Shown: positions 3,378 through 25,869 of the stretch, piece after piece | Position numbering within the stretch: position 1 is the stretch's first letter | Layout of the letters: each line of letters opens with the position of its first letter | Assembly (NCBI GenBank): GCA_039815185.1 | Contig: JBCBZT010000078.1 | Coordinates: 1-25,869, forward strand | Length of the DNA stretch: 25,869 nucleotides | Reading direction: 5' to 3' | Origin: Cyanobacteria bacterium P01_A01_bin.123 | Lineage (GTDB): Bacteria; Cyanobacteriota; Cyanobacteriia; Phormidesmidales; Phormidesmidaceae | Translations under genes and position numbers: made by a program | Notes under the pieces: model-generated | Databases searched by the model: none | Told to the model about the DNA's origin: nothing | What the model saw: the letters and a program-made list of their open reading frames with translations, nothing else

Positions 3378-3534
3378 AAGTCCCCGCCACACCAGGCATA
3401 GCAGTCGCCAGTTTCGTAGGACAAGACTGCGAGCCAGATTGCTTGTGGACTCAGCATCCCAGCGATACTCGGTGCATTAAGCAATCTGGCCAGCGACATA
3501 TACCAATTTCTAGGGAGGCGCGGGGCTTATGCCT
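3378..3534. other. Multi-stem inverted-repeat element (possible structured RNA, REP-like element or terminator)
   Basis: Perfect 12-bp IR GCCAGATTGCTT (3433-3444) / AAGCAATCTGGC (3479-3490). Also GCAGTC/GACTGC (3401-3430), AGGCATA/TATGCCT (3394-3400 / 3528-3534) and AAGTCCCCGC/GCGGGGCTT. Confidence 0.4.
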
Positions 3535-5655
3535 TTACAGTAACCCGCCCCATTCGGCTGGCGATGGTGAATCTTGAGCTGTCGTATAGGATCGAATGTT
3601 GACTTGTGAACTGCGATTACCCTTTTTAAATCGCACCAACCCCAACTGCTGTTGTTTACTGAACCCCGGTGCAATTTGATGATGGTTTGCGCAAATTAAA
3701 GTGGGTGCTAATTGCGTGTGTTGCAATAACAGATTTTTGAGGTTGCCGCTGCGTAGTCCTTGGGCATTGTTGCCGGGTAAAAATAGGGCTGCTGTTCCGC
3801 CCGAATTCAACAATTGAAAACAGCGTTCGATGAATAAGCGCTCGATATGAAACGTTGCAGATTGAAAGGGATGAGCGGCGCTGGTTTGCTGGTGCTCGTA
3901 TTGTTCGGCACGACGAAAATACTCGCGCACATAGGCAAACTGGCTGTGATAGAGTAACCAATGCTTAGCGAGTTCGGCGTCTTTTTGAAGAAGTTGGTTT
4001 CGCGATCGCCGAAAGGCCCTCGAATCAAGTTGTTTGCGCTGAGCCAGATGGCGAAAGCGGCTCAAAAACTGCTGAGACGTAGCTCGCAAAGCGCCCCAGG
4101 GCAGGTCAGCTAGAATGACGTCAAAGCCGCCCTCATTGGCCAAAATGGTGTGAAACTGATAGCCCCAATGGAATGGCTGTAGCTGCCGGATGTCGTCCAG
4201 ATTTAAGATGCGTTTATGGGTGCGACCATTTGCGGGTTGGGTTTGGCGGTAGCGGATGCCTAGTTTTTGGCTAAATTCATTGAGCAAAAGCTGATCGAGC
4301 TTTTGCTGGGCTTTTTGGTTGAGCGCCTGAATGTGGTCGCGCAAAAACTCACTTTGCACATATTTGGGCAGCGTTGTGACTTCGGCCATCAAACGAGTTT
4401 GGGCCTGATAGTCTTCTAGACTGATTTGCTTTTCGATCACGATGGTACGGTAGTCTTCGGCCATCAGGGGTTGTAGCAAATTGCCTTGCAGCACTCGGCT
4501 ATCGGTACCGACGCGATCGCTGCCTTTGAGCGTGACCTGGTCAAACCCTTCTGCATCGACTTGAATCAAACCAATCAACGCATTCCCCGGCAGCAGATTG
4601 AACTCAATTAGCGGTAGTGGCCCCAATTCGGTCTCTTGCTTGACGTCACTGAGCAGATGAAGAAACAGCTGGAGTCGGGTGAGTTCGATCGCCGATTCGG
4701 AAATATCAACGCCGTAGAGGTTGTCGGTTAAGATGCAGCGCTTGATGGCGAGGCGTTGGTTTTGGGGAGGGGAGGGGGGTGAGGAGATGGGGAGATGGGG
4801 GGAGATGGCTTCGTAAATTGGGACTAATGTTTGCATTGCGCCGATGAGCAATGCGCCTGATCCGCAGGCGGGATCAAGGATGCGAAAGCGGGGCAAAATA
4901 TCGTGTTTGAGGCGGGAGGCTAATTGATGATTAAGGTCTTTGAATAAGGCGTCTAGAGTTTTGAAGGATTGACCGCTAGCGGTGGTGATTCGATCTAAAA
5001 TCTGCTGTTCCACGACGCGATCGCAGAGAGATTGAATCACCTCCAGGGATAGGGCATAGGCTCGGCCACTGGCATCAGTCATGGCGTATTGAAAACTTTG
5101 CTGTAGCAGCGACAGAGTCAGGACTGGGGTTAATTCAGGGGCATCCTGGTTTTGTCCTTGCTGAATGCCGTTTAAGTCTTGGTCATTTGTAACCCCGTGC
5201 CACTGCCAGCGGTAGTCCCCAAACCAGTCCAAAATGGTTTCAAAACAGCTATCCGCGATCGCGATCGCCGAATAGCGTCGCTCAAGCCGATGGGGTTGGA
5301 ATAAACTGCTACTGAGGTAAGGAATTTGGCCAATCAGGGTTTGGGTGGAGGCGGTGCGTTCTTCTACTGGGAGGGCAAATCCCTGTAACCCTAAGCACTG
5401 TAAAAACTCGCCGTAAAACCGATTGGGGCCGCGCTGCTGACTTTGGCCGAGTTTATTTTGCAAATACCAGCGATCGCCCCCGTCGAGCCAACCCTGACCC
5501 TGTAAGAAACCAATCAAAATCAATCGGGCGAGGATAACTGTGGCATAAATCGCGCGATCGCCATCGTCCTCAATACCCTCGATCTCAGTCGTCAATACCG
5601 ATTGGTGCGTCTGAAATTCGAGAAACCATCGATAGCTTCTGTTGGAAGCGTCCAT
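3535..5655 (-). CDS. Eco57I/type IIG-like adenine DNA methyltransferase-domain protein with atypical catalytic motif
   Basis: SAM-binding motif I ILDPACGSGALL, followed by NLYGVDI and GNALIG. GGFDVILADLPW sits at the motif IV position, and LFIERCFQLL follows. Confidence 0.8.
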   Translation of the reverse strand: MDASNRSYRWFLEFQTHQSVLTTEIEGIEDDGDRAIYATVILARLILIGFLQGQGWLDGGDRWYLQNKLGQSQQRGPNRFYGEFLQCLGLQGFALPVEERTASTQTLIGQIPYLSSSLFQPHRLERRYSAIAIADSCFETILDWFGDYRWQWHGVTNDQDLNGIQQGQNQDAPELTPVLTLSLLQQSFQYAMTDASGRAYALSLEVIQSLCDRVVEQQILDRITTASGQSFKTLDALFKDLNHQLASRLKHDILPRFRILDPACGSGALLIGAMQTLVPIYEAISPHLPISSPPSPPQNQRLAIKRCILTDNLYGVDISESAIELTRLQLFLHLLSDVKQETELGPLPLIEFNLLPGNALIGLIQVDAEGFDQVTLKGSDRVGTDSRVLQGNLLQPLMAEDYRTIVIEKQISLEDYQAQTRLMAEVTTLPKYVQSEFLRDHIQALNQKAQQKLDQLLLNEFSQKLGIRYRQTQPANGRTHKRILNLDDIRQLQPFHWGYQFHTILANEGGFDVILADLPWGALRATSQQFLSRFRHLAQRKQLDSRAFRRSRNQLLQKDAELAKHWLLYHSQFAYVREYFRRAEQYEHQQTSAAHPFQSATFHIERLFIERCFQLLNSGGTAALFLPGNNAQGLRSGNLKNLLLQHTQLAPTLICANHHQIAPGFSKQQQLGLVRFKKGNRSSQVNIRSYTTAQDSPSPAEWGGLL
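4764..4808. repeat. Short G-rich low-complexity repeat inside the methyltransferase gene
   Basis: GGAGATGG occurs three times plus G runs. It encodes the Pro/Ser linker ISPHLPISSPPSPP. Confidence 0.6.
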
Positions 5656-5673
5656 TCCTGATCGTGTTATTCC

Positions 5674-5967
5674 TTACTTCCTGTCCCCTTGATCATGAGT
5701 CTGCAACCATTCTCGCAAATCTTCCAATCCAGAAAAATCCAACAACGCCTCACTCAACTGCTCTAGCGCTTCCAACGGCAACTGGTTAAGCTGAGGCTGA
5801 ACCTCATCCGGCAACCTGTCAAAACGTCGAGTCAAAAGACGAACCACGAGCGATCGCGCTTCATTCTCACGCCCTTGTTCGAGTCCTTGTTCGAGTCCTT
5901 GTTCGAGTCCTTGTTCGAGCCCCTGCTGATATACCCTGGTTTGCTTTAGTTCACTCAAGCCAAACAT
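5674..5967 (-). CDS. Putative nested in-frame small protein (RpnS-like antitoxin, 97 aa)
   Basis: AGGAG (5981-5977) lies 9 nt upstream of an in-frame ATG at 5967 (MFGLSELKQTRVYQQGLEQ...). Confidence 0.6.
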   Translation of the reverse strand: MFGLSELKQTRVYQQGLEQGLEQGLEQGLEQGRENEARSLVVRLLTRRFDRLPDEVQPQLNQLPLEALEQLSEALLDFSGLEDLREWLQTHDQGDRK

Positions 5968-6564
5968 CGCTGCAATCTCCTGCCAACTCAGCTGCGGAAA
6001 TTTATAGACCACAATTGTCTCAATTAGCTCTATTATCACCGATTCAGATAGACGTGATGTAGCATTCCCCATCTGCTCAACTAACCGCTGTGCCCGAGCA
6101 ACGGCAGTTGGTTCTGGCTCCACAATCAGTTTTATTAATTCCAACTCCACCGAAGTTGAATCTACTTCTGCCAGTTTATCGAGATATAGCCTTTGTACCT
6201 GAGAAAAAGCCAATAGTGGCGCATGAGCACCTGCGGCTCTAGGTTCGCAAATTTGGTTTCCATAGATCACCACTACCCGCCAATCCTGCACCTCAGGATT
6301 TTGACGCAAAGATACCATCACCTCGGCGAATAGTCGCCCATAGAGTTGCTCATCCCGTTGAAACTGCACTTCTATAAAGTAGACAGGTGCGTTAGCTGCA
6401 GTTGGTTCTGGTAGAAGCACGCCGTCAATGCGAAAGGCGGTTTGCTTCAGTTCGACTGAACGAAATACATAGGAGTCCGCTTGGAGATTGCTCTCGCCGA
6501 TTAACTCGAATAAGAGGGTTGGAGCGGTTTGAAACAGTCGATAAAATAGCGAATCAGTTTGCAC
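5674..6564 (-). CDS. Rpn-family PD-(D/E)XK nuclease / putative transposase (DUF2887-type N-terminus, DUF4351-type C-terminus)
   Basis: MQTDSLFYRLFQ start, ELKQTAFRIDGV and YFIEVQFQ motifs, GLEQ repeats, and C-terminal RLLTRRF...LEQLSEALLDF...LREWL. Confidence 0.9.
   Translation of the reverse strand: MQTDSLFYRLFQTAPTLLFELIGESNLQADSYVFRSVELKQTAFRIDGVLLPEPTAANAPVYFIEVQFQRDEQLYGRLFAEVMVSLRQNPEVQDWRVVVIYGNQICEPRAAGAHAPLLAFSQVQRLYLDKLAEVDSTSVELELIKLIVEPEPTAVARAQRLVEQMGNATSRLSESVIIELIETIVVYKFPQLSWQEIAAMFGLSELKQTRVYQQGLEQGLEQGLEQGLEQGRENEARSLVVRLLTRRFDRLPDEVQPQLNQLPLEALEQLSEALLDFSGLEDLREWLQTHDQGDRK
5873..5920. repeat. 12-bp tandem repeat, 4 copies (GLEQ repeats)
   Basis: CCTTGTTCGAGT three times, then CCTTGTTCGAGC. 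Confidence 0.95.
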
Positions 6565-16950: not shown

Positions 16951-18120
16951 ATGGCTGACACGCTTGATCTCATTTTGCATCGTGCCTTATCTGGCAAAGA
17001 CATTGGTGTCGCCGAGGCTGTTGCGTTGTTGACACAGAAAGACCCGGAGGCGATCGCATCTATTCAAGCCGCCGCTGATACCTTAAGACAGCGGCAAGCG
17101 GGCGACACGGTGACCTATGTGGTTAACCGCAACATCAACTACACCAACATCTGCGAACAGCACTGTAGCTTTTGTGCGTTCCGACGGGATGCCGATCAAC
17201 CCGGGGCTTACTGGCTTGATTGGGACACGATGCTGCAAAAGGCGGCTGATGGGGTTGCCCGTGGGGCAACCGAGATCTGCATGCAGGGTGGACTTAACCC
17301 TGAAGCAAAAATCGACGGTAGCAGCTTAAAGTTCTATTGCAAGCTGCTGCAAACCTTAAAAGCGGCTTTTCCTAAGCTACACCTCCACGCCTTTTCACCC
17401 CAGGAAGTGCAGTTTATTGCCCGCCAAGATGGGTTGGATTACCGTAGCGTGATTGTTGCTTTGCAAGCGGCTGGGGTGGGTTCCCTACCGGGTACGGCGG
17501 CAGAAGTGCTTGACGACTCAGTCCGCAAAGTTCTGTGCCCTGAAAAGCTGGATACGGCAACTTGGCTAGACATTGTGGCGATCGCCCACAGTGAGGGACT
17601 CCATACTACGAGCACAATGCTCTCGGGGCACATTGAAACCCCCACCCAGCAAGCCCACCATTTAGACCAGCTGCGATCGCTCCAGCAACGTGCCCACGCC
17701 CAAGGCTATCCCGGCATTAGCGAATTTATTTTGCTGCCGTTTGTCGGTCAAGAAGCGCCCAAACCCCTGAGACGCAGAGTTGGGCGCGATCAACCTGTGC
17801 TAGCCGATGCTCTGTTGCTAATGGCAGTGGCGCGAATTTATTTGGGCAATTGGATTGTGCATCACCAGCCCAGCTGGGTCAAGCTGGGTCTAGAGGGTGC
17901 TAGAGAAGCCCTAAATTGGGGCTGCAACGATATTGGCGGCACCCTGATGGAAGAGCACATTACCTCGATGGCGGGAGCCCAGGGCGGCACCTGCATGGGG
18001 GTAGCCGATTTGCAAAATGCGATCGCGTCCCTAGGTAGACCCCATCAGCAACGAGATACTTTGTATCAGCCGATTGCCTTGGCAGGCAGCTTATCTGAAG
18101 CTGTCGGTGTGAATGCCTAA
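16951..18120 (+). CDS. cofH: FO (7,8-didemethyl-8-hydroxy-5-deazariboflavin) synthase subunit CofH, radical SAM
   Basis: [22 protein letters not shown] (CxxxCxxC), [16 protein letters not shown] and [12 protein letters not shown]. Start is ATG 16951 or TTG 16945. Confidence 0.92.
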
Positions 18121-18152
18121 TGGTTCGATTTATCCCAAAGACCCCTACAACA

Positions 18153-18956
18153 CTAAACGGCGATGAAATCGACAGCTTGTTGAATCACCCACTCATTGCG
18201 CAAAATGCGTCGATGGCCTAAGCCTGAGGTTTCAATCAAACGAGCTCCTGACCAAGCTTGAGCAATGGCATGGCCTTCTTCAATCGAGACGTCACGGTCA
18301 TGGCGATCGTGGAACAGCAGGGCTGGAACCGATAGCTTGCTGGCGATTTGATCGACTGAAAATCGTTGCCAAATATCCTGACCGAACTGTGTCTCAAACA
18401 GGTTTAGAAATGCTTCTCTAACGTCTGTAGAAAGTCTGGCTCGTCTGGCAAACAGTTTGGCCGCGTTTGACAACCAGCACATGGGGCCAAGATAAACCAC
18501 CTTATCGATCTGCATGCCGTCACTCAAGGCTAGGGTTGTGCTAGCTGCACCGATAGAGTGAGCGATGACTCGCGTGATCGGGGCTTGGTGTTGGGCTATG
18601 GTCGCGATCGCCTGAGCAATTTCTAAACCGCTGGTTTTAATCCCCACGGTACTGCCATGGGCAGGGGCATCGAATGCCAGGACTCGATAACCTGCGTTCA
18701 ACAGGGGTTCGATAAAGTGACCGAGTTGTAAGCCATAGCCCCCCCAACCATGCACTAGAAGCACAGTTGGGCCAGTACCCCAGCAGAATGCATTGAGGTT
18801 GATTGACTCAAAAGGAACTGCAAATGAGGTAGCTTGTGCCAGAACTCCCAACTCTAATTCAGAGAGCGGCTTCTTGGAAGGCGTCAAGAACTTTTCCAGC
18901 GCTTGTTGGGCTTCACTTGCAATCTGAATTGACAATATTTTTTGAGGATACGCCAT
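18153..18956 (-). CDS. Alpha/beta-fold hydrolase
   Basis: VHGWGG, FDAPAHG, nucleophile elbow AHSIG, HDRHD and GLGH. Confidence 0.9.
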   Translation of the reverse strand: MAYPQKILSIQIASEAQQALEKFLTPSKKPLSELELGVLAQATSFAVPFESINLNAFCWGTGPTVLLVHGWGGYGLQLGHFIEPLLNAGYRVLAFDAPAHGSTVGIKTSGLEIAQAIATIAQHQAPITRVIAHSIGAASTTLALSDGMQIDKVVYLGPMCWLSNAAKLFARRARLSTDVREAFLNLFETQFGQDIWQRFSVDQIASKLSVPALLFHDRHDRDVSIEEGHAIAQAWSGARLIETSGLGHRRILRNEWVIQQAVDFIAV

Positions 18957-19030
18957 ACTGACCAACGCTTAGTGTTGTGAGCAGATCAAACAGCTTAGGG
19001 AGGTTTAGCGCCACCCATTTGAGCACTTGA

Positions 19031-19082
19031 ATGTATACCTTGTCAACATATATCAAAATTCAAAAGTTGACAAGGTAAACTT
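19031..19082. promoter_or_regulatory. Twin palindromic operators between the divergent hydrolase and TetR genes
   Basis: ATGTATACCTTGTCAACAT (19031-19049) and AAGTTGACAAGGTAAACTT (19064-19082). Each is a quasi-palindrome, and they are inverted copies sharing 12 perfect bp (TACCTTGTCAAC). Confidence 0.8.
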
Positions 19083-19106
19083 CTAGTAATATCTGTAAAG
19101 AGATCT

Positions 19107-19727
19107 ATGTCTAACCCGAAAAAGCAAGGACGCTATCACCACGGTGATTTGCGACAAGCCGTCATTGATGCTGCTCTCCAGTTGATTGCAGAACAAGGCA
19201 TTGAAAGTTTGACGTTGCGGGAAATTGCTCAACGGGTTGGCGTTTCACGCATGGCCCCCTATCGTCACTTTGAAAATAAAGCGGTCTTGTTAGCGGTACT
19301 CGCTCAAGAAGGATTTCAGGCATTGTCTGTTCACATCCAGGCAACCTTGGCCAAATCGTCTTCTCAACCTCTAGAGCGATTGCAGGCGCTTGGCGTGGCT
19401 TACATTTTTTATGCGGTCGAAAATCCCGTCCATTACCGGGTAATGTTTGATGCCTCTCTTAGCAATCGCACGCTCTATCCGCCGCTTTATGAAACGGCGG
19501 TTAAAAGCTTTGACTGTCTAGTAGAGGTCTTAATAAAGTGTCAAAATGCTGGGCTAATTGGAGGCGGTGATCCGAAGGAATTAGCCCAAATTAATTGGTC
19601 ACTGTGTCATGGCTTAGCTATGTTGTTGATTGATCAGCAATTTATAACCATGGGGCATGCCCCAGTTGAAGAACTTGCCAATACTGCGCTGAGGACCATC
19701 ATTGAAGGTTTAAAGAACTCAAAATAG
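19107..19727 (+). CDS. TetR/AcrR family regulator (YHHGDLR / WHG-type)
   Basis: YHHGDLRQAVI, HTH LTLREIAQRVGVSRMAPYRHF, and WSLCHG. Confidence 0.95.
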   Translation: MSNPKKQGRYHHGDLRQAVIDAALQLIAEQGIESLTLREIAQRVGVSRMAPYRHFENKAVLLAVLAQEGFQALSVHIQATLAKSSSQPLERLQALGVAYIFYAVENPVHYRVMFDASLSNRTLYPPLYETAVKSFDCLVEVLIKCQNAGLIGGGDPKELAQINWSLCHGLAMLLIDQQFITMGHAPVEELANTALRTIIEGLKNSK

Positions 19728-20091
19728 GACAAAGGATGCTAGCAGAACGTTTGGCAGCGTGTTCTTCAAGGTTTTTGTAGAGTACCCTCCCAAAACCGTT
19801 GTTTCTCCATTCTTGTCCTATTGCAACCTGGTCGATGTACAAGAAATTCTCACTTAAGTGGTGACCAAACCATTGGAACTCTTCTGCATCGTAAGACGCA
19901 TCTTGATTCATCGCAAAAATATATCCAGCAACCACACTATCGACTTCAATGACTCTAAAATGCTCACATATTTTAATTAGAACTTCGAAGTAGTCACGTT
20001 CCAGTAAGGCTACTCCCGGTAACGATTCCCGATTGATCGACAAAACACGTTCGTAGTCTTCCGGTGTGGCGTTACGACATATCGACTGCAT
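19699..20091 (-). pseudogene. GNAT acetyltransferase, probably C-terminally truncated
   Basis: FLYIDQVAI...RNNGFGRVLY acetyl-CoA motif A is present. The ORF then runs antisense into the tetR 3' end with no motif B segment. Confidence 0.7.
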
Positions 20092-20274
20092 AAGTTTTTA
20101 AATACTGACTCCAATGCTTGATACCCTTGATGCCTTGCGTGAGGTTCGTAAAGCTCGTCGGCTGAGTTAGCCAGAGCTGTTCCGTTCAATATAACAATTG
20201 CTTGAGTCAGACTTACAATGTCAAGAATGAAGCTTAAAATCAGGTTCAGTACGATGTTTGCATAGGAAACCTGG

Positions 20275-20634
20275 ATGCGAGAAATTCAGATTGCGGCTGG
20301 TTACAAAACGCGGATTATCCGACGTCAGTTCAGCAGTCTTGCGACAAGTTATACCTTTAATGTGGTCCCTGCAACTCAGAATAGTCACTTGGTGGGAACA
20401 GTGGAAATCAAGGGATCCAATTGGATTTTCCCAAAATCTATCCAAAGGGTACCACTGAAGCCGATCAACACTGTTACAGCAGGTGTGTGGGATACATTTT
20501 TTTCGGTTTACGTAATCCCAGAGGTTGATGTTGTCATTTCTCTGCCATCCAAGTCCTTTGGCGGGCGGCTATGGCTCATTGGTCTGGTTGTGGTTGTGAC
20601 AGGGGTTGCGATCGCACTCTTCCTTTTGACTTGA
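20275..20634 (+). CDS. Hypothetical protein with C-terminal membrane anchor
   Basis: 119-aa ORF, AGGA upstream of the ATG, hydrophobic C-terminus containing a HIP1 site. Confidence 0.65.
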   Translation: MREIQIAAGYKTRIIRRQFSSLATSYTFNVVPATQNSHLVGTVEIKGSNWIFPKSIQRVPLKPINTVTAGVWDTFFSVYVIPEVDVVISLPSKSFGGRLWLIGLVVVVTGVAIALFLLT

Positions 20635-20677
20635 CCCTCGGAGTCAATCGAACGAAATCCAGTGCATAGGCGTCCAA

Positions 20678-20701
20678 GTCCGCTGCAGTGAGATGTTACG
20701 C
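20678..20701 (-). other. attC-like half site (R''-L'' arm)
   Basis: The minus strand reads GCGTAAC-ATCTCACTG-CAGCGGAC. No partner arm was found. Confidence 0.45.
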
Positions 20702-20819
20702 AATGCCCACCGGAGATGCAGCATTTCAAACTTAGCAGAGGCAAAACTCTCGCGATCGCAAGGTTTTGTGCCTAGCATGAGGAAAGGACTTACATACCTC
20801 ACGGCTTATTGTATCCGTC

Positions 20820-21113
20820 ATGGATCCTGGCACACTCAATCGGCTGACTGCTCAAGCATATGCAATCGTCTTTCTGACTGGAGCAGGTGTCTCAGCCCCT
20901 TCGGGATTGCCTACATACACTGATGCGGATGGGAAGAGAGTTGATGAAGGTTCGGAGGATGGCTCTGGAGAACTGCAAAAGATCTACGCTGAGTTAACCA
21001 GTCAGATTGCTAATGCGCAGCCAAATGCCGCTCACTACTATCCTGGGTGGTTGCTTGCAAAAGGACACACTGTAGAGGTGATTACTCAAAGTAAGGAGAC
21101 TGTTCTCTCATGA
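20820..21113 (+). pseudogene. Sir2/CobB sirtuin N-terminal fragment
   Basis: VFLTGAGVSAPSGLPTY, AQPNAAH and VITQ are present. The expected N(V/I)D, catalytic HG and C-terminal half are missing. Confidence 0.8.
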
Positions 21114-21243
21114 CCTCGAAGTGGCGCAGATGGATAATCGCCCATCATAAGGGTGACTGCAGCCAGCTATTTGATTCAGCAATGTCGGTACGGGATAAGT
21201 TTCAGCTTTGAGTTCCTGACATGCTCAGACTGTGAAATGCATG

Positions 21244-21345
21244 GCCTAACAGTCCCGCTCACCGGAGCCAGGTAATCTATCTTTGCATCAACGCATCAAA
21301 ACTCTACATAGATTCGGATAGGCTCCGTTGGAGTGAATATAGCTT
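21244..21345 (-). other. Degenerate attC-like site
   Basis: Minus strand: ...CACTCCAACGGAGCC...GGCTCCGGTGAGCGGGACT-GTTAGGC. R' matches GTTRRRY, while R'' is decayed. Confidence 0.5.
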
Positions 21346-21517
21346 GTGCCATTTAGGTTAGGACACCTAGTAAAGATACAACTCATGGCACAGAGCCAAA
21401 TGGCGTCGCAGCCTTGTCCTAAGGTCACTGGCGACGGCTATAACTAGACACTTATTGAGATTGGGAGCCCACTCCAGGTAGGCTTAGTCTGAACTCTAGC
21501 ACCGGAAGTCCTGATTC

Positions 21518-22144
21518 ATGGCTCAACTTACTGTTTACGGTCCGACTATCAGCACATATGTCCGCACCGTTCGCATGATCCTAGAAGAGACCAACACCTC
21601 TTATGAGCTTCAGGGTGTGGACATCTTCTCAGATAGAACGTCTGAGTACCTTGGGCTCAATCCTTTTGGTAAGGTTCCTACTCTGAAAGTGGATGATCAG
21701 ATTCTTTATGAAACCAGCGCGATCGCTGAATATCTGGATGCTACAGTGGCTGATCATGCCTTCACGCCTAAAGATCCGATGGCTCAGGCATATATGCGTC
21801 AGATTATGTCGATTGTGGATAGCTACCTGTATGGGCCTTCTATCAGCGTGATCACTATCCAGCGCCTGATCGTACCCAGTCAAGGAGGTGAATCGGATGA
21901 GACAGCTATTCAAACTGCTGTTCCTAAGGTTACAACGGCCTTAGAGGCGATCGAATCCATCACAAGTTGTAATCTGTTCCTGTTGGGCGACATGATCACC
22001 CTAGCAGATTTCTATTTGATGCCTGTGATGTTCTATCTTTCCAAGACTCCTGAGATGAATTCAGTGACTGCTCAAACGCCGAAATTGAAAAGCTGGTGGG
22101 ACTCCATCAACCAACGCCCCAGTTTCCAGCAGGTGATCGCCTAG
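21518..22144 (+). CDS. Glutathione S-transferase family protein
   Basis: STYVRTVR, NPFGKVPTL, YETSAIAEYL and GDMITLADF motifs. Confidence 0.95.
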   Translation: MAQLTVYGPTISTYVRTVRMILEETNTSYELQGVDIFSDRTSEYLGLNPFGKVPTLKVDDQILYETSAIAEYLDATVADHAFTPKDPMAQAYMRQIMSIVDSYLYGPSISVITIQRLIVPSQGGESDETAIQTAVPKVTTALEAIESITSCNLFLLGDMITLADFYLMPVMFYLSKTPEMNSVTAQTPKLKSWWDSINQRPSFQQVIA

Positions 22145-22154
22145 GGATCTCGGC

Positions 22155-22207
22155 GTTTAGTATTACGGGATCTGTTACGGCAAGATCCCGTAATACTAAA
22201 CAGTTTT
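22155..22207 (+). terminator. Long perfect hairpin (probable terminator) after the GST gene
   Basis: 19-bp perfect IR GTTTAGTATTACGGGATCT/AGATCCCGTAATACTAAAC with a 9-nt loop. Confidence 0.8.
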
Positions 22208-22367
22208 CATTTAAGAAAACGGATCATTCACACTTAGCCCAAACAAATTTATTAGCAATTACCCCACAGCAATTGTTCTTTTGGCGGTGGATCTGGAGTC
22301 ATGGCAGTTGGCAAAAGGATCCGGGGGGAGAGGACAGGATCTGCAAAAACGTCGACGGGGACGTGAT

Positions 22368-22455
22368 GTCTAACGGCTCAAATCAGCGGCGACCAGTAGC
22401 CTAGGACTCAACCATCTGCAACTTTCAAACGTCCGCGGCATTTGAATGGTTATGT
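22368..22455 (-). other. attC-like site (88 bp, both arms)
   Basis: Minus strand: ACATAAC-CAT-TCAAAT-G-CCGCGG-A-CG ... CG-CCGCTG-ATTTGA-GCC-GTTAGAC. It shows paired arms, unpaired extra bases and R' = GTTAGAC. Confidence 0.65.
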
Positions 22456-22572
22456 AGCTGCAACAGAACCAAATTTTGACTCTCATAACGGTAAGCAAAA
22501 CACCAATTATTTCATCCTGATTTTTCACTTTGGCTGAGTAACGAAACATACTCTATAAAACTCTGAAACCTT

Positions 22573-22668
22573 TATAGCAGTTCCCACTCAAATGAAGTGC
22601 ATCAAAATCATTGACTGACAAGGTTTTTAGCTTCAACACTGTACCTCACCAAATAGAGATCCGCTATA
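22573..22668. mobile_element. MITE-like element with imperfect 29-bp terminal inverted repeats and TA ends
   Basis: Left TATAGCAGTTCCCACTCAAATGAAGTGCA versus reverse-complemented right TATAGCGGATCTCTATTTGGTGAGGTACA. No ORF inside. Confidence 0.65.
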
Positions 22669-22815
22669 TTAGCGCAAAAAATCAGAACAGAACCCTTTCG
22701 AAATAGTCTGAGAAGTTGGTAAAAAAATATCAACATTGAGTAGAATCAAACTCAAGGAGAGCAAATAGCTTATATGAGCAAAGATAATGAGAATTGAGTT
22801 TTCTATAGTTAACTT

Positions 22816-25542
22816 CTAGCAGAAGTGAGATCGGCGATATCGTTTAAACCTATCAATGTCGGTTTCACCCGAGAACAAAAAATCCAAAAAGCTAACGTTT
22901 TTATATTTGCAAGTCTGGTAAATACTTAGCAGCACTAAATATCTTTTGACTCCATTTTCTGTAAATCTTCCGCCTACAATATTTCTATAACTTGCGAATG
23001 CTTTAATCGCATGCTCAGCATTATTATTATTCCATGGAATATCATCATGGTTTAAGAATTCAAATAGTTTTATCCTATTTTTGATTAAACGAGATTTATA
23101 TTTCTCAAAAAGATCGGAACCAAAAGAAAAAGACTCCATCTTTTTATAAAAATTATCTACATCATACTTGTGCTTTTTTAGGTTTCTTTTTTTGAGTCCA
23201 TACTCGTCTATTGTCTCTACGATCATCTTAAGAAGAATCCCAAGATTTTTTACAAGCGTTTTGTATTCTTCGTCGAATGGATTCTTGTATAAATCATCAT
23301 TCATATCTCTGATAAGATGGATAAGGCATTTTTGTTGAAGGCATTTAACAGAATTATAAGCACTGTAAAAATCAGAAATTAATACACCATCAAAGTTTGC
23401 TATCTTACCTAGAATTTTCCCTTCTCTACTTGGAGAATAGATATAAAAAACTTCTTCAAAACTGGTAAATACCCAGACATAACCTTCCTCTCTTTGAATG
23501 TCTACTGTTGTTTCGTCTGCATGAATAAGCTTACCTGCATTAAGTTTTTCTAAGATCAGATCATAAGTCTTACTATAATCATTTGCCATTGAAATCATAG
23601 ATTTGTCCCAACCTGGAAAAATATAAAATCCAAATATATCTTTTAGATTTTCATAAATATCATTCTGAGATTGCTTCATTGCAACTCGCTGATAAACCAT
23701 ATACGCATAAACTCGATGCCCATATCTATTTTTGATTGCCTTAAATTCGTCTGATCTCCACCGATATTTACAAGATTGACACCAAGCTCTATGAGTAGAG
23801 AATTTTGTTGTCCATTTTTTTATTCCATATTTAAAGTACTTTAAATCGATTACCGTTTTGTGCACTCTGCCGCCCCTGTAGATTTTAGTATGGCCACATT
23901 TTGGACATTTACTGGGTAGGGCGAGTTCCACATACTTATTCACTTTGTGGTCTTGACGTACTCTTTTCAACTTTTTGTTAGCATTTTTATTTGAGCCTCT
24001 CTCCTTTTTGTTTCTGAAAAATATCTTTTCCCTTTGGTAATCGAAATAGGCACACTTATTAATGTAGTTAAGTTCTTCTAAGACAAAATCGTTTTTCTTA
24101 AATAAAAAATTTGAATTATCACTAGTTTTATTTGCGTCAACAACCTCGGATGAATCTGGTCTATTTTCTTTGTTTGAAAGTTTCAACATGAAATTGAAAA
24201 CATGTTGTAACGCAAAGCAATCCTCCAGATTATATTCGATAAGTTTTTGCTTCAATTTTTCATGGTGGCTTTTCTCCCACTGGTATCTCCAAGCAAGACT
24301 TTGCAGCCCAGATACGCCTGATTCTGACCATGAAAAGCCTATAGAATTTGCAATTTCCTTTAAAGAGTTGGAAAATGTGGGAAAGTAGATCTTTCCATAA
24401 ATACATGAATTTATATTAATCAGACGTTTCGTGATCTGATCAATATCAGTTGAATATCTCTTGGCTAATTGATTGATTGCCTTCACCTCGTAATTTCCAT
24501 AATGATAAATTGGCACCTCAGGATACTCGTTAATCTTCGCAAGTAATTGTTTCCAGATTGTTTCCTCATGCTCCGGGGTATCTGTCCAGAAGGATTTTTG
24601 GATACAATTTTCTCCTTCACACACTAACAGTCCCATCAGGTAATAAAACCGCTTATCGGGAATTCCCTCTATGTCTAGAAACAGCTCTACTGATTGCCGA
24701 GTTAACTTTGGCAATTCTTGAATATAGACCTTTTGCTCCCGAATTGCCAATGCCTGTAGTTCCAAGCTGTGTTTCACTGGCTCTGAAGTCTTCTGCTTTT
24801 TTCGTCTTCGACGAGGTCTGAACAAGTAAGACAGTTGTTGAACCGTGAAAATACCGCGACTATTATATTTTTGAATCGCCTTGGGCGTCATTCGATCTAA
24901 TAAACTGAGATTGTTTTCCTTCTCTGCTTGCTCCTGACAGATATGCTGAAATTGACAGGATGGGCAATGTTTGTTCAAAACTAAACTGGGAGTTTCAGTT
25001 GATTGAGCATTGCACCAACTTTCAAGCATTTTCAAAGATGTTTTGATGCCTTTATAACCATTTTCTAATTGAACTCGATGGGCTTTCCCATCCATGCCTA
25101 CTATTCGTCCTAGAGCAGGTACCTGCTTCTGAATCTGGCCTAGCACCAAGCCAACGAATAGTAGTTCTACTTTCTGCTCAGAGGTAATACTGCAAGTACC
25201 CGTGACGATTGTTGGCTCGTACCTGATTCGACGATTTGTCGAACTAGTATCCACTTTAGTCAAGACAGCACAGTACGCTTCCAATTGCTCCGACCTCAGT
25301 GTTGCATCAACCAGAAACTCATGCTTCTTGAAACCTTTTGTGTCATACGCTCTGGCTTCAGGGTGGTATTCTAGGAACTTTTCTAAATACTGGGATCGAT
25401 TGTTTTCACGACGTTCTTCCAGAATTAGCGGATAATTATGAGGCTCCCCCTTGTCCTCAGAAAACATAAGCAAAAAAGCTTTGCGAGGACACTGCGAATA
25501 GGCAACAAAGATTTCCGAAGTGATTACTGAAATATTGCTCAT
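22816..25542 (-). CDS. TM0106-type RecB/Cas4-like + RNase H-like (DEDD) exonuclease + zinc finger + IS66-family DDE transposase fusion
   Basis: CPRKAFL and HCPSCQFQHIC; FLDIEG, IYHYGNYE, SLKEIA and YNLEDC; CPKCG...CQSC; IS66 TnpC motifs IHADET, YVWVF, LISDFYSAY, QKCLIHLIRD and NNNAEHAIK. Confidence 0.88.
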   Translation of the reverse strand: MSNISVITSEIFVAYSQCPRKAFLLMFSEDKGEPHNYPLILEERRENNRSQYLEKFLEYHPEARAYDTKGFKKHEFLVDATLRSEQLEAYCAVLTKVDTSSTNRRIRYEPTIVTGTCSITSEQKVELLFVGLVLGQIQKQVPALGRIVGMDGKAHRVQLENGYKGIKTSLKMLESWCNAQSTETPSLVLNKHCPSCQFQHICQEQAEKENNLSLLDRMTPKAIQKYNSRGIFTVQQLSYLFRPRRRRKKQKTSEPVKHSLELQALAIREQKVYIQELPKLTRQSVELFLDIEGIPDKRFYYLMGLLVCEGENCIQKSFWTDTPEHEETIWKQLLAKINEYPEVPIYHYGNYEVKAINQLAKRYSTDIDQITKRLININSCIYGKIYFPTFSNSLKEIANSIGFSWSESGVSGLQSLAWRYQWEKSHHEKLKQKLIEYNLEDCFALQHVFNFMLKLSNKENRPDSSEVVDANKTSDNSNFLFKKNDFVLEELNYINKCAYFDYQREKIFFRNKKERGSNKNANKKLKRVRQDHKVNKYVELALPSKCPKCGHTKIYRGGRVHKTVIDLKYFKYGIKKWTTKFSTHRAWCQSCKYRWRSDEFKAIKNRYGHRVYAYMVYQRVAMKQSQNDIYENLKDIFGFYIFPGWDKSMISMANDYSKTYDLILEKLNAGKLIHADETTVDIQREEGYVWVFTSFEEVFYIYSPSREGKILGKIANFDGVLISDFYSAYNSVKCLQQKCLIHLIRDMNDDLYKNPFDEEYKTLVKNLGILLKMIVETIDEYGLKKRNLKKHKYDVDNFYKKMESFSFGSDLFEKYKSRLIKNRIKLFEFLNHDDIPWNNNNAEHAIKAFASYRNIVGGRFTENGVKRYLVLLSIYQTCKYKNVSFLDFLFSGETDIDRFKRYRRSHFC

Positions 25543-25687
25543 GGCAATCTCTCATTTTTGCCCTGGATTGGCAATATAAATATATATTCAGCGTCAAATC
25601 TAGTAGATAAGATCCACATTTCCGGATCTTATGCGTCACTTTTGGGTGATAACACCCTTATATACAGAACTTATAGGCAACTTTTGA

Positions 25688-25869
25688 GTGCGACACGTTC
25701 CTCTGAAACCAGTTCTGGGGAAGGAGGACAAGGTCGAGAACCTTGATAACTGATGTCTGATAAGGGTGAAAGTCCCTTCCTCCCGGTAGTGGAGTGACAG
25801 CATAGCCCCCAGGTTTGCGACTGGCCATCAACGCCTGAAGCGGGGTTAAACGGCAGTAACCAAAAGCCT
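25688..25869 (+). mobile_element. Group II intron, 5' end (domain I), continuing beyond the window
   Basis: Starts with GTGCG (GUGYG consensus). Nested stems AAAC..CTGGGG/CCCCAG-GTTT and GGAGGA/TCCTCC, plus hairpins CAAGGT-CGAGA-ACCTTG and AAGGG-TGAAAGT-CCCTT with GNRA loops. Confidence 0.8.

Follow-up and report, generated by a model that had tools for sequence, protein, structure and literature searches.

The gene at positions 22816..25542 (minus strand) of the DNA analysed here, a stretch of 25,869 nucleotides (nt) from Cyanobacteria bacterium P01_A01_bin.123 that I hereafter call the window, is a single complete open reading frame (ORF) of 908 amino acids (aa) with an ATG start, in which a TM0106-like module precedes, in the same chain, a DDE transposase of the IS66 type. 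The insertion-sequence (IS) family IS66 is a large one, and its chemistry is poorly understood. With a probability of about one half, I take the gene to be a member of a large family of selfish, horizontally mobile single-gene elements that derives from IS66 and carries an N-terminal end-processing module of the TM0106 type. This view is based on the patchy distribution of the fusion, on sister pairs that cross phyla, on its foreign GC content, on its mobile neighbours and on the occurrence of copies in unrelated flanks. The copy in the window is intact, with every conserved residue present, is foreign in its base composition and has other mobile DNA around it.

Domain architecture of the window protein

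Profile searches assign the two halves of the protein to different families. The TM0106 model of NCBIfam (TIGR03491) matched residues 8-452 over model positions 2-462 of 462 with 245.3 bits (cut-off 97.45), Pfam RNase_H_2 (PF13482) matched residues 287-450 with 103.2 bits (cut-off 22), and Pfam DDE_Tnp_IS66 (PF03050) matched residues 607-865 with 94.7 bits (cut-off 23.1), scores that are far above chance. The IS66 equivalog of NCBIfam (transpos_IS66, NF033517) matched residues 523-889 with 160.8 bits, under its cut-off of 180. A profile search of PDB sequences with the fusion gave 0 matches. An AlphaFold2 model was computed from an alignment of 115 relatives; since its mean predicted local distance difference test score (pLDDT) is 88.2 and its predicted template modelling score (pTM) 0.56, each domain is predicted with confidence, whereas their placement relative to one another is not. 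Two stretches, residues 476-484 and 510-530, are disordered in the model (pLDDT <50). When the model was compared with the PDB using Foldseek, the DDE half matched the ISCth4 transposase (6xgx_A, E 1.4e-7) and also the Hermes transposase, the other matches being Cas4 (8d3l_I, E 1.7e-5), the Dna2 nuclease domain and the exonuclease domains of family-B polymerases.

Read from the N-terminus, and with all coordinates on the minus strand, the protein begins with a Cas4-fold domain (residues 1-209, 24916..25542) that carries four conserved cysteines, C18 (in CPRK) and C193-x2-C196-x5-C202, and from which the PD-(D/E)xK residues are absent. VIA-align superimposes this domain on the Cas4 chain 7mi4_A with a Z of 17.2 (root-mean-square deviation 3.3, 187 residues aligned) and on 8d3l_I with a Z of 15.7, and the PADLOC Cas4 model gives a weak domain match (E 4.8e-4). 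The Cas4-like 1 + 3 arrangement of the cysteines would suit a putative Fe-S cluster. There follows a stretch conserved in the alignments, LSLL...GIFT..QL and then a basic linker (residues 210-282, 24697..24915), which I would read from its motif as helix-hairpin-helix-like (HhH); in the ESM Atlas, HHH_5 is found in 12-54% of the members of two clusters of standalone TM0106 proteins. The next domain (residues 283-470, 24133..24696) is a DEDDy-type 3'-5' exonuclease containing D290-I-E292 and Y437-N-L-E-D441, which VIA-align matches to PolB-type exonuclease domains at Z 15-16.4 (e.g. 5mdn_A, 3k5o_B). A flexible basic linker of low pLDDT (residues 471-535, 23938..24132), with a conserved INKCAYFDYQRE helix pair that shorter relatives also possess, leads to a beta-rich Zn ribbon (residues 536-600, 23743..23937) of the form C546-x2-C/H549 ... 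C588-x2-C591, C549 being the residue found in the window protein and the beta strands being modelled at 536-588. The IS66-type DDE catalytic domain (residues 601-905, 22828..23742), which contains a helical insertion, completes the chain with D676-E677 (ADET), D724 (SDFY) and N839-N840-A-E843. An earlier note on this DNA had described an uninterrupted 908-aa ORF with these motifs in this order and had suggested examining the segments by profile and structure prediction: all the motifs are read in the translation, the TM0106 family, RNase_H_2 and DDE_Tnp_IS66 were matched, and the Zn ribbon was modelled.

Conserved and lost active sites

Residues C193, C196, C202, D290, E292, H347, D441, C546, C588 and C591 are invariant across 115 full-length relatives, as are D676, E677, D724, N839 and E843 in the DDE half, while C18 is at least 90% conserved. 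The residues of exonuclease motifs Exo I (DxE), Exo II (acidic) and Exo III (YxxxD), namely D290, E292, E352, Y437 and D441, are all either invariant or at least 90% conserved. The intact D-D-E triad and the DEDD-like exonuclease postulated in the earlier note are thus borne out in this alignment, as is the conservation of both sites among homologues on which it had made its proposal depend. In eight of eight close pairs, the ratio of nonsynonymous to synonymous substitution rates (dN/dS) lies between 0.18 and 0.31, and it is below 1 in each third of the protein.

The N-terminal module was compared using an alignment of 15 standalone TM0106 proteins and 20 fusions, 18 of which could be aligned at the PD-(D/E)xK region. 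Most of the standalone proteins display P-D-L-L-(I/V)-(K/R) and (D/E)-I-(K/R)-L-G-K, the two motifs that characterize PD-(D/E)xK nucleases; in a few sequences one of the acidic residues is missing. At the position of the first acid the fusions have A, D, G or another residue, their second motif is T-I-V, or I-R-F and similar, and the lysine is present in none of the 18; the window protein itself has A92 at the PD position and T-I-V in place of the standalone (D/E)-I-K. Thirty fusion N-termini from a broader range, 24-33% identical to that of the window protein, keep the cysteines and have no conserved acidic residue in positions 1-200. Since the PD-(D/E)xK residues are lost while the cysteines are kept, the Cas4-fold domain of the fusion is probably not a nuclease and most plausibly represents a DNA-binding Fe-S domain devoid of catalytic activity. 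Of the Cas4/RecB-like Fe-S module that had been proposed, the fold and the four cysteines are therefore retained, but not the nuclease residues, which are replaced. The DEDDy residues (DxE, the YE of HYGxYE, and YNxED) are kept in standalone and fusion sequences alike, and the exonuclease and DDE sites are best read as active. Judged from these alignments, what is new here is a Cas4-like domain that has kept its four cysteines and lost its catalytic residues, unlike most standalone TM0106 proteins of the same class.

Distribution of the fusion

A protein search returned 5158 matches, the best 120 of which all carry both PF03050 and PF13482, most of them at about 99% query coverage. Many fusion-bearing contigs are just 2.9-3.5 kb long, and the names given by the sources are 'IS66 family transposase' or 'TM0106 family RecB-like putative nuclease'; labels of this kind, which the earlier note mentioned, exist both among the protein matches and in the ESM Atlas. 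At least 597 fusion loci were confirmed in species-representative genomes and at least 567 in metagenome contigs, two plasmids (from Calothrix and Acaryochloris) carry a full-length fusion, and the ESM Atlas contains at least 10 clusters of this architecture, four listed clusters holding 53-134 members each. The loci in species-representative genomes are distributed over Acidobacteriota, Verrucomicrobiota, Planctomycetota, Pseudomonadota, Nitrospirota, Chloroflexota, Cyanobacteriota and further groups, one archaeal bin among them. The fusion is no assembly accident but a real, widespread single gene, and the idea of a junction unique to this assembly, considered in the earlier note, fails in view of the number of loci. 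Shorter relatives of the DDE half also exist, whose matches to the query begin at residues 434-514; many of them may be truncated fusions.

Within the phylum the fusion is found in 4 of 301 genomes surveyed (that of the window included), in one copy each, and two of the four copies contain stop codons. On a 65-row protein tree, which retains two rows with very long branches due to a wrong or partial reading frame (L042 and L032), the phylum labels need 26 changes against a minimum of 10, and well-supported sister pairs join loci from different phyla (L075/L080, L013/L033, L079/L084 and L046/L054). The fusion spreads horizontally between distant bacteria. A phage origin was considered and rejected: a scan of IMG/VR gave no confirmed relatives, and none of 50,697 phage records was matched by tblastn.

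Extent, ends and copy number of the shared unit

Closely related copies delimit what is common to them. The loci L210 and L217 are 97.5% identical over 3081 nt and both their flanks are unrelated; L064 and L164 (93.7% identical) likewise lie in unrelated flanks, and L161, L170 and L173 (about 92% identical) in three different contexts. Similarity between L206 and L220 (87.7% over 2737 nt) covers essentially the ORF alone, and that between L148 and L149 (92%) stops at the last sense codon. More generally, similarity between close copies starts 1-105 nt 5' of the ATG and in most pairs ends between the last codons and a few tens of nt past the stop, extending 60-180 nt further in L210/L217 and L064/L164; in several pairs it starts 1-17 nt before the ATG or stops within the last codons. 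In the clade of the window gene, the conserved unit has its left edge some 10 nt upstream of the start codon, as judged from one contig of another study (run X3), 85% alike, which covers 25376-25552 and then continues into unlike sequence, 25543..25552 (minus strand) being the only upstream stretch in common. The unit common to the copies exceeds the ORF only slightly, and its ends are ragged. Aligning the flanks of homologues, which had been suggested as a way to define element ends, target duplications and empty sites, thus yielded a discrete shared unit but no target duplication or empty site, and a convincing inverted repeat in one locus of 113.

That one locus is L210, whose terminal inverted repeat is imperfect, about 38 nt long, and contains GTAATCGC, which resembles the GTAA termini of IS66 relatives. 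No inverted repeats span the window ORF, and a 2890-nt high-coverage contig (L097) has no terminal repeat. The inverted repeats of L015, L022, L037, L057, L172 and L221 were rejected as ends, being palindromic and present on both sides of the ORF and partly inside it; in their sequence they look like host repeats of the repetitive extragenic palindromic (REP) type. The boundary procedure was run identically on standalone IS66 relatives as controls, and here it did recover inverted repeats of 15-17 nt starting with GTAA, on elements of 1368, 1443 and 1464 bp. Since the controls were positive, the negative outcome at the ends of the fusion is not a weakness of the method.

An ordinary insertion sequence of the IS66 group, with normal ends that were missed because the copies are old, truncated or drawn from metagenomes in which identical repeats are collapsed, would account for the terminal repeat of L210. 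It would also account for the many short contigs bearing the gene, which are expected of assembly-breaking repeats, and for a 2890-nt contig from an isolate, the label of which gives 200-fold coverage. However, pairs as close as 97.5% (dS 0.05) are already devoid of shared ends, and the several pairs that cease to be alike inside the final codons or 1-17 nt ahead of the ATG have no room for repeats of the usual size. Moreover, long-read genomes resolve standalone IS66 copies in far greater numbers than fusions: the 26 matches listed in genome G355 comprise 24 standalone IS66-type genes and 2 divergent fusions. I therefore hold this explanation to be decidedly unlikely.

Several observations weigh against a mobile element. 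A convincing terminal inverted repeat is absent from 112 of the 113 loci scanned and an 8-bp target duplication from every close-pair boundary, while the controls show 8-bp duplications in three of three copies (genome G302) and five of six copies (G355). Fusion copies are few and divergent in long-read genomes (two each in G355 and G356, one each in G357, G358 and G359). Some copies have stayed intact at conserved positions in related species, L021 and L050 both lying beside recG and L053 and L062 sharing both flanks, an arrangement as compatible with a gene retained by the host as with a mobile element. The data examined revealed neither a circle junction nor an empty site nor a transposition event, and a role of the exonuclease in transposition is pure inference.

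Most of these observations would suit a domesticated transposase, that is a non-transposing DNA-processing enzyme (acting in repair, in interference with plasmids or phages, or otherwise) that is moved by other elements and by recombination and is kept by selection on the host or plasmid. So would the purifying selection on all three modules and the neighbourhood of the fusion, which is often a variable region rich in toxin-antitoxin genes. On the other hand, no conserved partner or operon was found: among 1072 flanking ORFs (loci L010-L095), the largest group of similar neighbours comprises 3 loci. No PADLOC defence model was matched beyond the weak Cas4 domain match. In addition, some genomes gave 8-10 matches, some complete and some partial, with a DNA similarity of 64-79% from copy to copy, and the many fragments and pseudogenes among them recall the decay pattern of selfish elements. 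Identity of 97.5% or about 92% between copies breaks off at the edges of the ORF, beyond which the flanks are entirely unlike, one copy (L210) keeps IS66-like inverted repeats, and the full DDE triad is invariant. Domestication is accordingly a possibility to be taken seriously, albeit one on the unlikely side.

The window locus itself was compared with 10 genomes of the same family, which have just one conserved gene in common with window positions 17000-22815, and no empty site was found. In run X2, the depth of the pieces that fit the window falls from 15.9, on a piece with 15 other letters that ends at 22341, to 2.8-7.4 over the gene, as it might if the segment were missing from a related strain; no contig joins across, however, and since contigs are incapable of showing the absence of a segment, no inference is drawn from this. 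Four pieces from the RNA run X4 (133-270 letters alike each) fit the 5' part of the gene, which does not show that the window gene is transcribed.

Other repeats and rearrangements were noticed around individual copies. In L053, a 153-nt direct repeat (1937-2089 and 5578-5730, 80% identical) brackets a 3.6-kb segment made up of the fusion and about 700 nt; the repeat consists of the 3' end of the upstream Mg-chelatase/ComM-like gene and resembles a duplicated attachment site, with no recombinase gene inside the segment. The ends of the 3549-nt contig L031, which holds a tRNA gene and the fusion, overlap by 44 identical nt (1-44 and 3506-3549) that include the 3' end of the tRNA-Glu gene, and the contig may represent a circle, a unit in tandem or an artefact of assembly. 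Further direct repeats flank the unit in L170 (51 nt) and L047 (40 nt); together with those of L053 and L031 they are too few and too mixed to interpret. The fusion ORFs of L019 and L037 contain in-frame insertions of 18-30 residues in the Cas4-like domain, and the one in L037 falls on a palindromic repeat of which further copies flank the gene; REP-type repeats thus seem to have inserted into the coding sequence. In a Gemmataceae bin (G303, contigs C609 and C399; loci L096, L114, L106, L120 and L025), two divergent fusions with about 70% DNA identity lie head to tail less than 1 kb apart, and this on two different contigs.

Comparison with known systems

The closest relatives of the DDE half are single-ORF IS66 elements (1368 bp in G302; 1443 and 1464 bp in G355), which I take to be the group known as ISBst12-like. 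Like the fusion, they are very compact and consist of one ORF with no TnpA or TnpB, and they have the same Zn ribbon and DDE_Tnp_IS66 core, matching positions ~507-862 of the profile built from the fusion alignment. Unlike the fusion, they have no N-terminal TM0106 module, and they possess 15-17-nt GTAA inverted repeats, 8-bp duplications and many near-identical copies, all three of which are missing from the fusion in nearly all loci. With respect to IS66 membership, the window protein has the DDE domain and its triad, but neither the NF033517 score, the inverted repeats, the 8-bp duplication nor tnpA and tnpB. The absence of the last two is common to the fusion and the single-ORF subgroup. 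It had already been remarked that the window contains no tnpA or tnpB, which holds, albeit with only 327 nt of sequence available upstream of the ORF; in fact TnpB_IS66 (PF05717) has 0 matches in the whole 8.09-Mb assembly, in contrast to 3 of 14 control genomes in which it was found, and no accessory tnpA or tnpB ORF is conserved among the ORFs that flank the relatives (L010-L095).

Standalone proteins of the TM0106/COG2251 family (TIGR03491, a Cas4-like DUF83 domain followed by PF13482) resemble the other half, the whole model being matched by both, with the same four cysteines, HhH stretch and DEDDy motifs. They form a near-universal single-copy gene of the class: 54 of its 61 genomes were matched, 52 of them at 427-597 bits in frames of 477-629 aa, as against just 219-262 bits for the TM0106 module of fusions. 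Most standalone proteins keep the PD...(D/E)-I-K/R motifs and the fusion does not, so that the window protein has the full-model TIGR03491 score without the PD-(D/E)xK residues. Two further TIGR03491 matches of 254-262 bits (G038:C1:3674983-3676455 and G334:C293:23884-25305) lie within cyanobacterial open frames of 1175-1176 aa, a different and longer architecture of the TM0106 module.

In Cas4 and the Cas4-Cas1 fusions (7mi4 and 8d3l, Z 15.7-17.2), as in the present protein, a four-cysteine Cas4 fold lies N-terminal to an integrating enzyme; chain 7mi4_A is presumably such a Cas4-Cas1 fusion, its length of 554 residues being consistent with this. The earlier note had suggested that the protein could capture, trim and integrate DNA. 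In that case the enzyme would be analogous to the Cas4-DnaQ-Cas1 machinery of spacer acquisition and would insert foreign fragments at a dedicated locus. The best structural match of residues 1-209 is indeed the Cas4 part of a Cas4/Cas1/Cas2 complex (7mi4_A), and a DnaQ-like exonuclease and an integrase-type domain are present in one chain. By contrast, the integrase of the fusion is a DDE transposase, the Cas4-like part has the fold and the 1 + 3 cysteines but has lost its D...(D/E)xK catalytic residues, and there is no linked cas1, cas2 or array. No Cas protein occurs among the 102 neighbouring ORFs analysed, and no cas gene or other conserved neighbour is found across about 70 loci. Nor were conserved repeats or non-coding RNAs, which the note had proposed to look for beside the gene, in evidence: no flank is conserved, no tandem repeat or repeat array is present in the last 6.9 kb of the window (19000-25869), and no Rfam family is found in the whole window. 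No recurrent acceptor locus was seen in the loci examined. The analogy with Cas1-dependent adaptation is therefore hardly credible. The other proposal of the earlier note, a transposase that is directed to particular DNA structures, is a possible reading.

Tn7 provides a different analogy. There TnsA, a protein with a restriction-enzyme fold, works with the DDE transposase TnsB on the transposon ends, and the nuclease is a separate, active protein. In the fusion, by contrast, the PD-(D/E)xK-fold domain is joined in the same chain and is apparently inactive, and the extra activity would be that of a 3'-5' exonuclease.

The pair formed by the Cas4-like (DUF83) domain and the PF13482 exonuclease (COG2251) has been described by sequence analysis (Majorek et al. 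2014, PMC3985635), and IS66 is not mentioned in that paper's account of the domain pair. A full-text literature search, judged from titles and the beginnings of abstracts, revealed no study of an IS66-TM0106 fusion, and no tested function for standalone TM0106/COG2251 proteins was found in the literature searched. The domain pair and the automatic labels are thus already known; the new element is an IS66 transposase with an unstudied accessory module and non-canonical ends.

A possible mode of action

If the fusion is a selfish single-gene element, the following pathway may be envisaged. An IS66-type transposase would have taken up a TM0106 paralogue, which then lost its nuclease site to decay but retained its Fe-S scaffold and its exonuclease. 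Cutting and joining of DNA would be the work of the Zn ribbon and the DDE domain, in the manner of other IS66- and IS256-like enzymes. The Fe-S/Cas4-fold/HhH part, no longer cutting, would hold a single-stranded or free DNA end and feed its 3' end to the exonuclease, which would trim flanking or non-transferred DNA at excision or integration. Such nibbling, together with intramolecular events, could produce ragged ends, the usual lack of inverted repeats and duplications, and a low copy number, most copies arriving unable to move again. A more radical version is that the fusion represents an undescribed mode of DDE transposition, in which an ORF-sized unit moves without terminal inverted repeats or a fixed duplication, the Fe-S end-binding domain and the exonuclease replacing TnpA/TnpB and precise end cleavage; I regard this as rather unlikely.

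In hundreds of species the fusion provides a functional link between IS66 and TM0106/COG2251, the standalone proteins of which are near-universal in some bacterial classes. It offers a one-protein system for studying the interplay of a DDE site with an exonuclease and with an Fe-S domain that binds DNA ends. Movement without inverted repeats or fixed duplications, if true, would widen the known range of DDE transposition and explain why such genes escape IS-finding software. If the fusion is domesticated, it would be a widespread transposase-derived enzyme with a cellular role yet to be assigned. Either outcome would provide a lead on the function of standalone TM0106 proteins.

Surroundings of the window gene

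The window is a whole contig (C126, JBCBZT010000078.1) of an assembly of 8.09 Mb in 133 contigs (99.99% complete, 5.99% contamination) that contains one copy of the fusion. The GC content of the ORF is 0.32-0.37, against about 0.5 (0.47-0.55) in most of the contig. On its 3' side, an AT-rich non-coding stretch of about 360 nt (22459..22815, no strand assigned; GC 0.32-0.40, a range that includes the ORF) follows the stop codon and is unique in the assembly, and beyond it lies a small repeat common to related genomes. That repeat, of about 85 nt (22370-22458), is present in G326, G348, G349 and G353. Another of about 105 nt (21336-21445) has many copies in related genomes, with 13 matches in G351 alone.

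Upstream of the ORF only 327 nt remain before the contig ends. Thirty-four nt upstream of the start codon, and outside the element, lies a copy of a dispersed repeat (25576..25687, plus strand), which was identified by searching with the copy on contig C14. The repeat is about 175 nt long when complete, and this search gave 10 matches in the assembly (71-100% identity), including the C14 copy itself and that of the window. The window copy is interrupted by the 5' end of a group II intron (25688..25869, plus strand) that starts with GTGCG, the other copies of the repeat being uninterrupted past the position equivalent to 25687. The last 141 nt of the window are identical to the start of contig C8 (locus L093, 1-2270), which contains a reverse-transcriptase-like ORF at 528-1388, apparently split into several frames, and an Rfam Intron_gpII match at C8:2186-2261 (46.2 bits). 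The contig therefore ends here because a group II intron sits in the dispersed repeat. The site of the gene is a patch of mobile DNA within an otherwise ordinary chromosomal region.

Across the relatives, the families represented by about 19 of the 102 nearest larger ORFs are those of transposases, integrases, resolvases, toxin-antitoxin systems or plasmids; the others are ordinary genes or match no family. The window contains no tRNA genes; a tRNA gene is nearby in 3 of the 60 loci of a first scan and also in L031 and L170, which is not above expectation. A scan for promoters and terminators gave sites no more frequent than in shuffled sequence. The rest of the window is ordinary, encoding an SLT transglycosylase, an M1 peptidase, FtsH, a radical-SAM protein, a TetR regulator and a GST. 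Among these housekeeping genes, an Eco57I/MmeI-like methyltransferase-domain protein lies beside a DUF2887/DUF4351 protein (3535-5655 and 5674-6564, minus strand).

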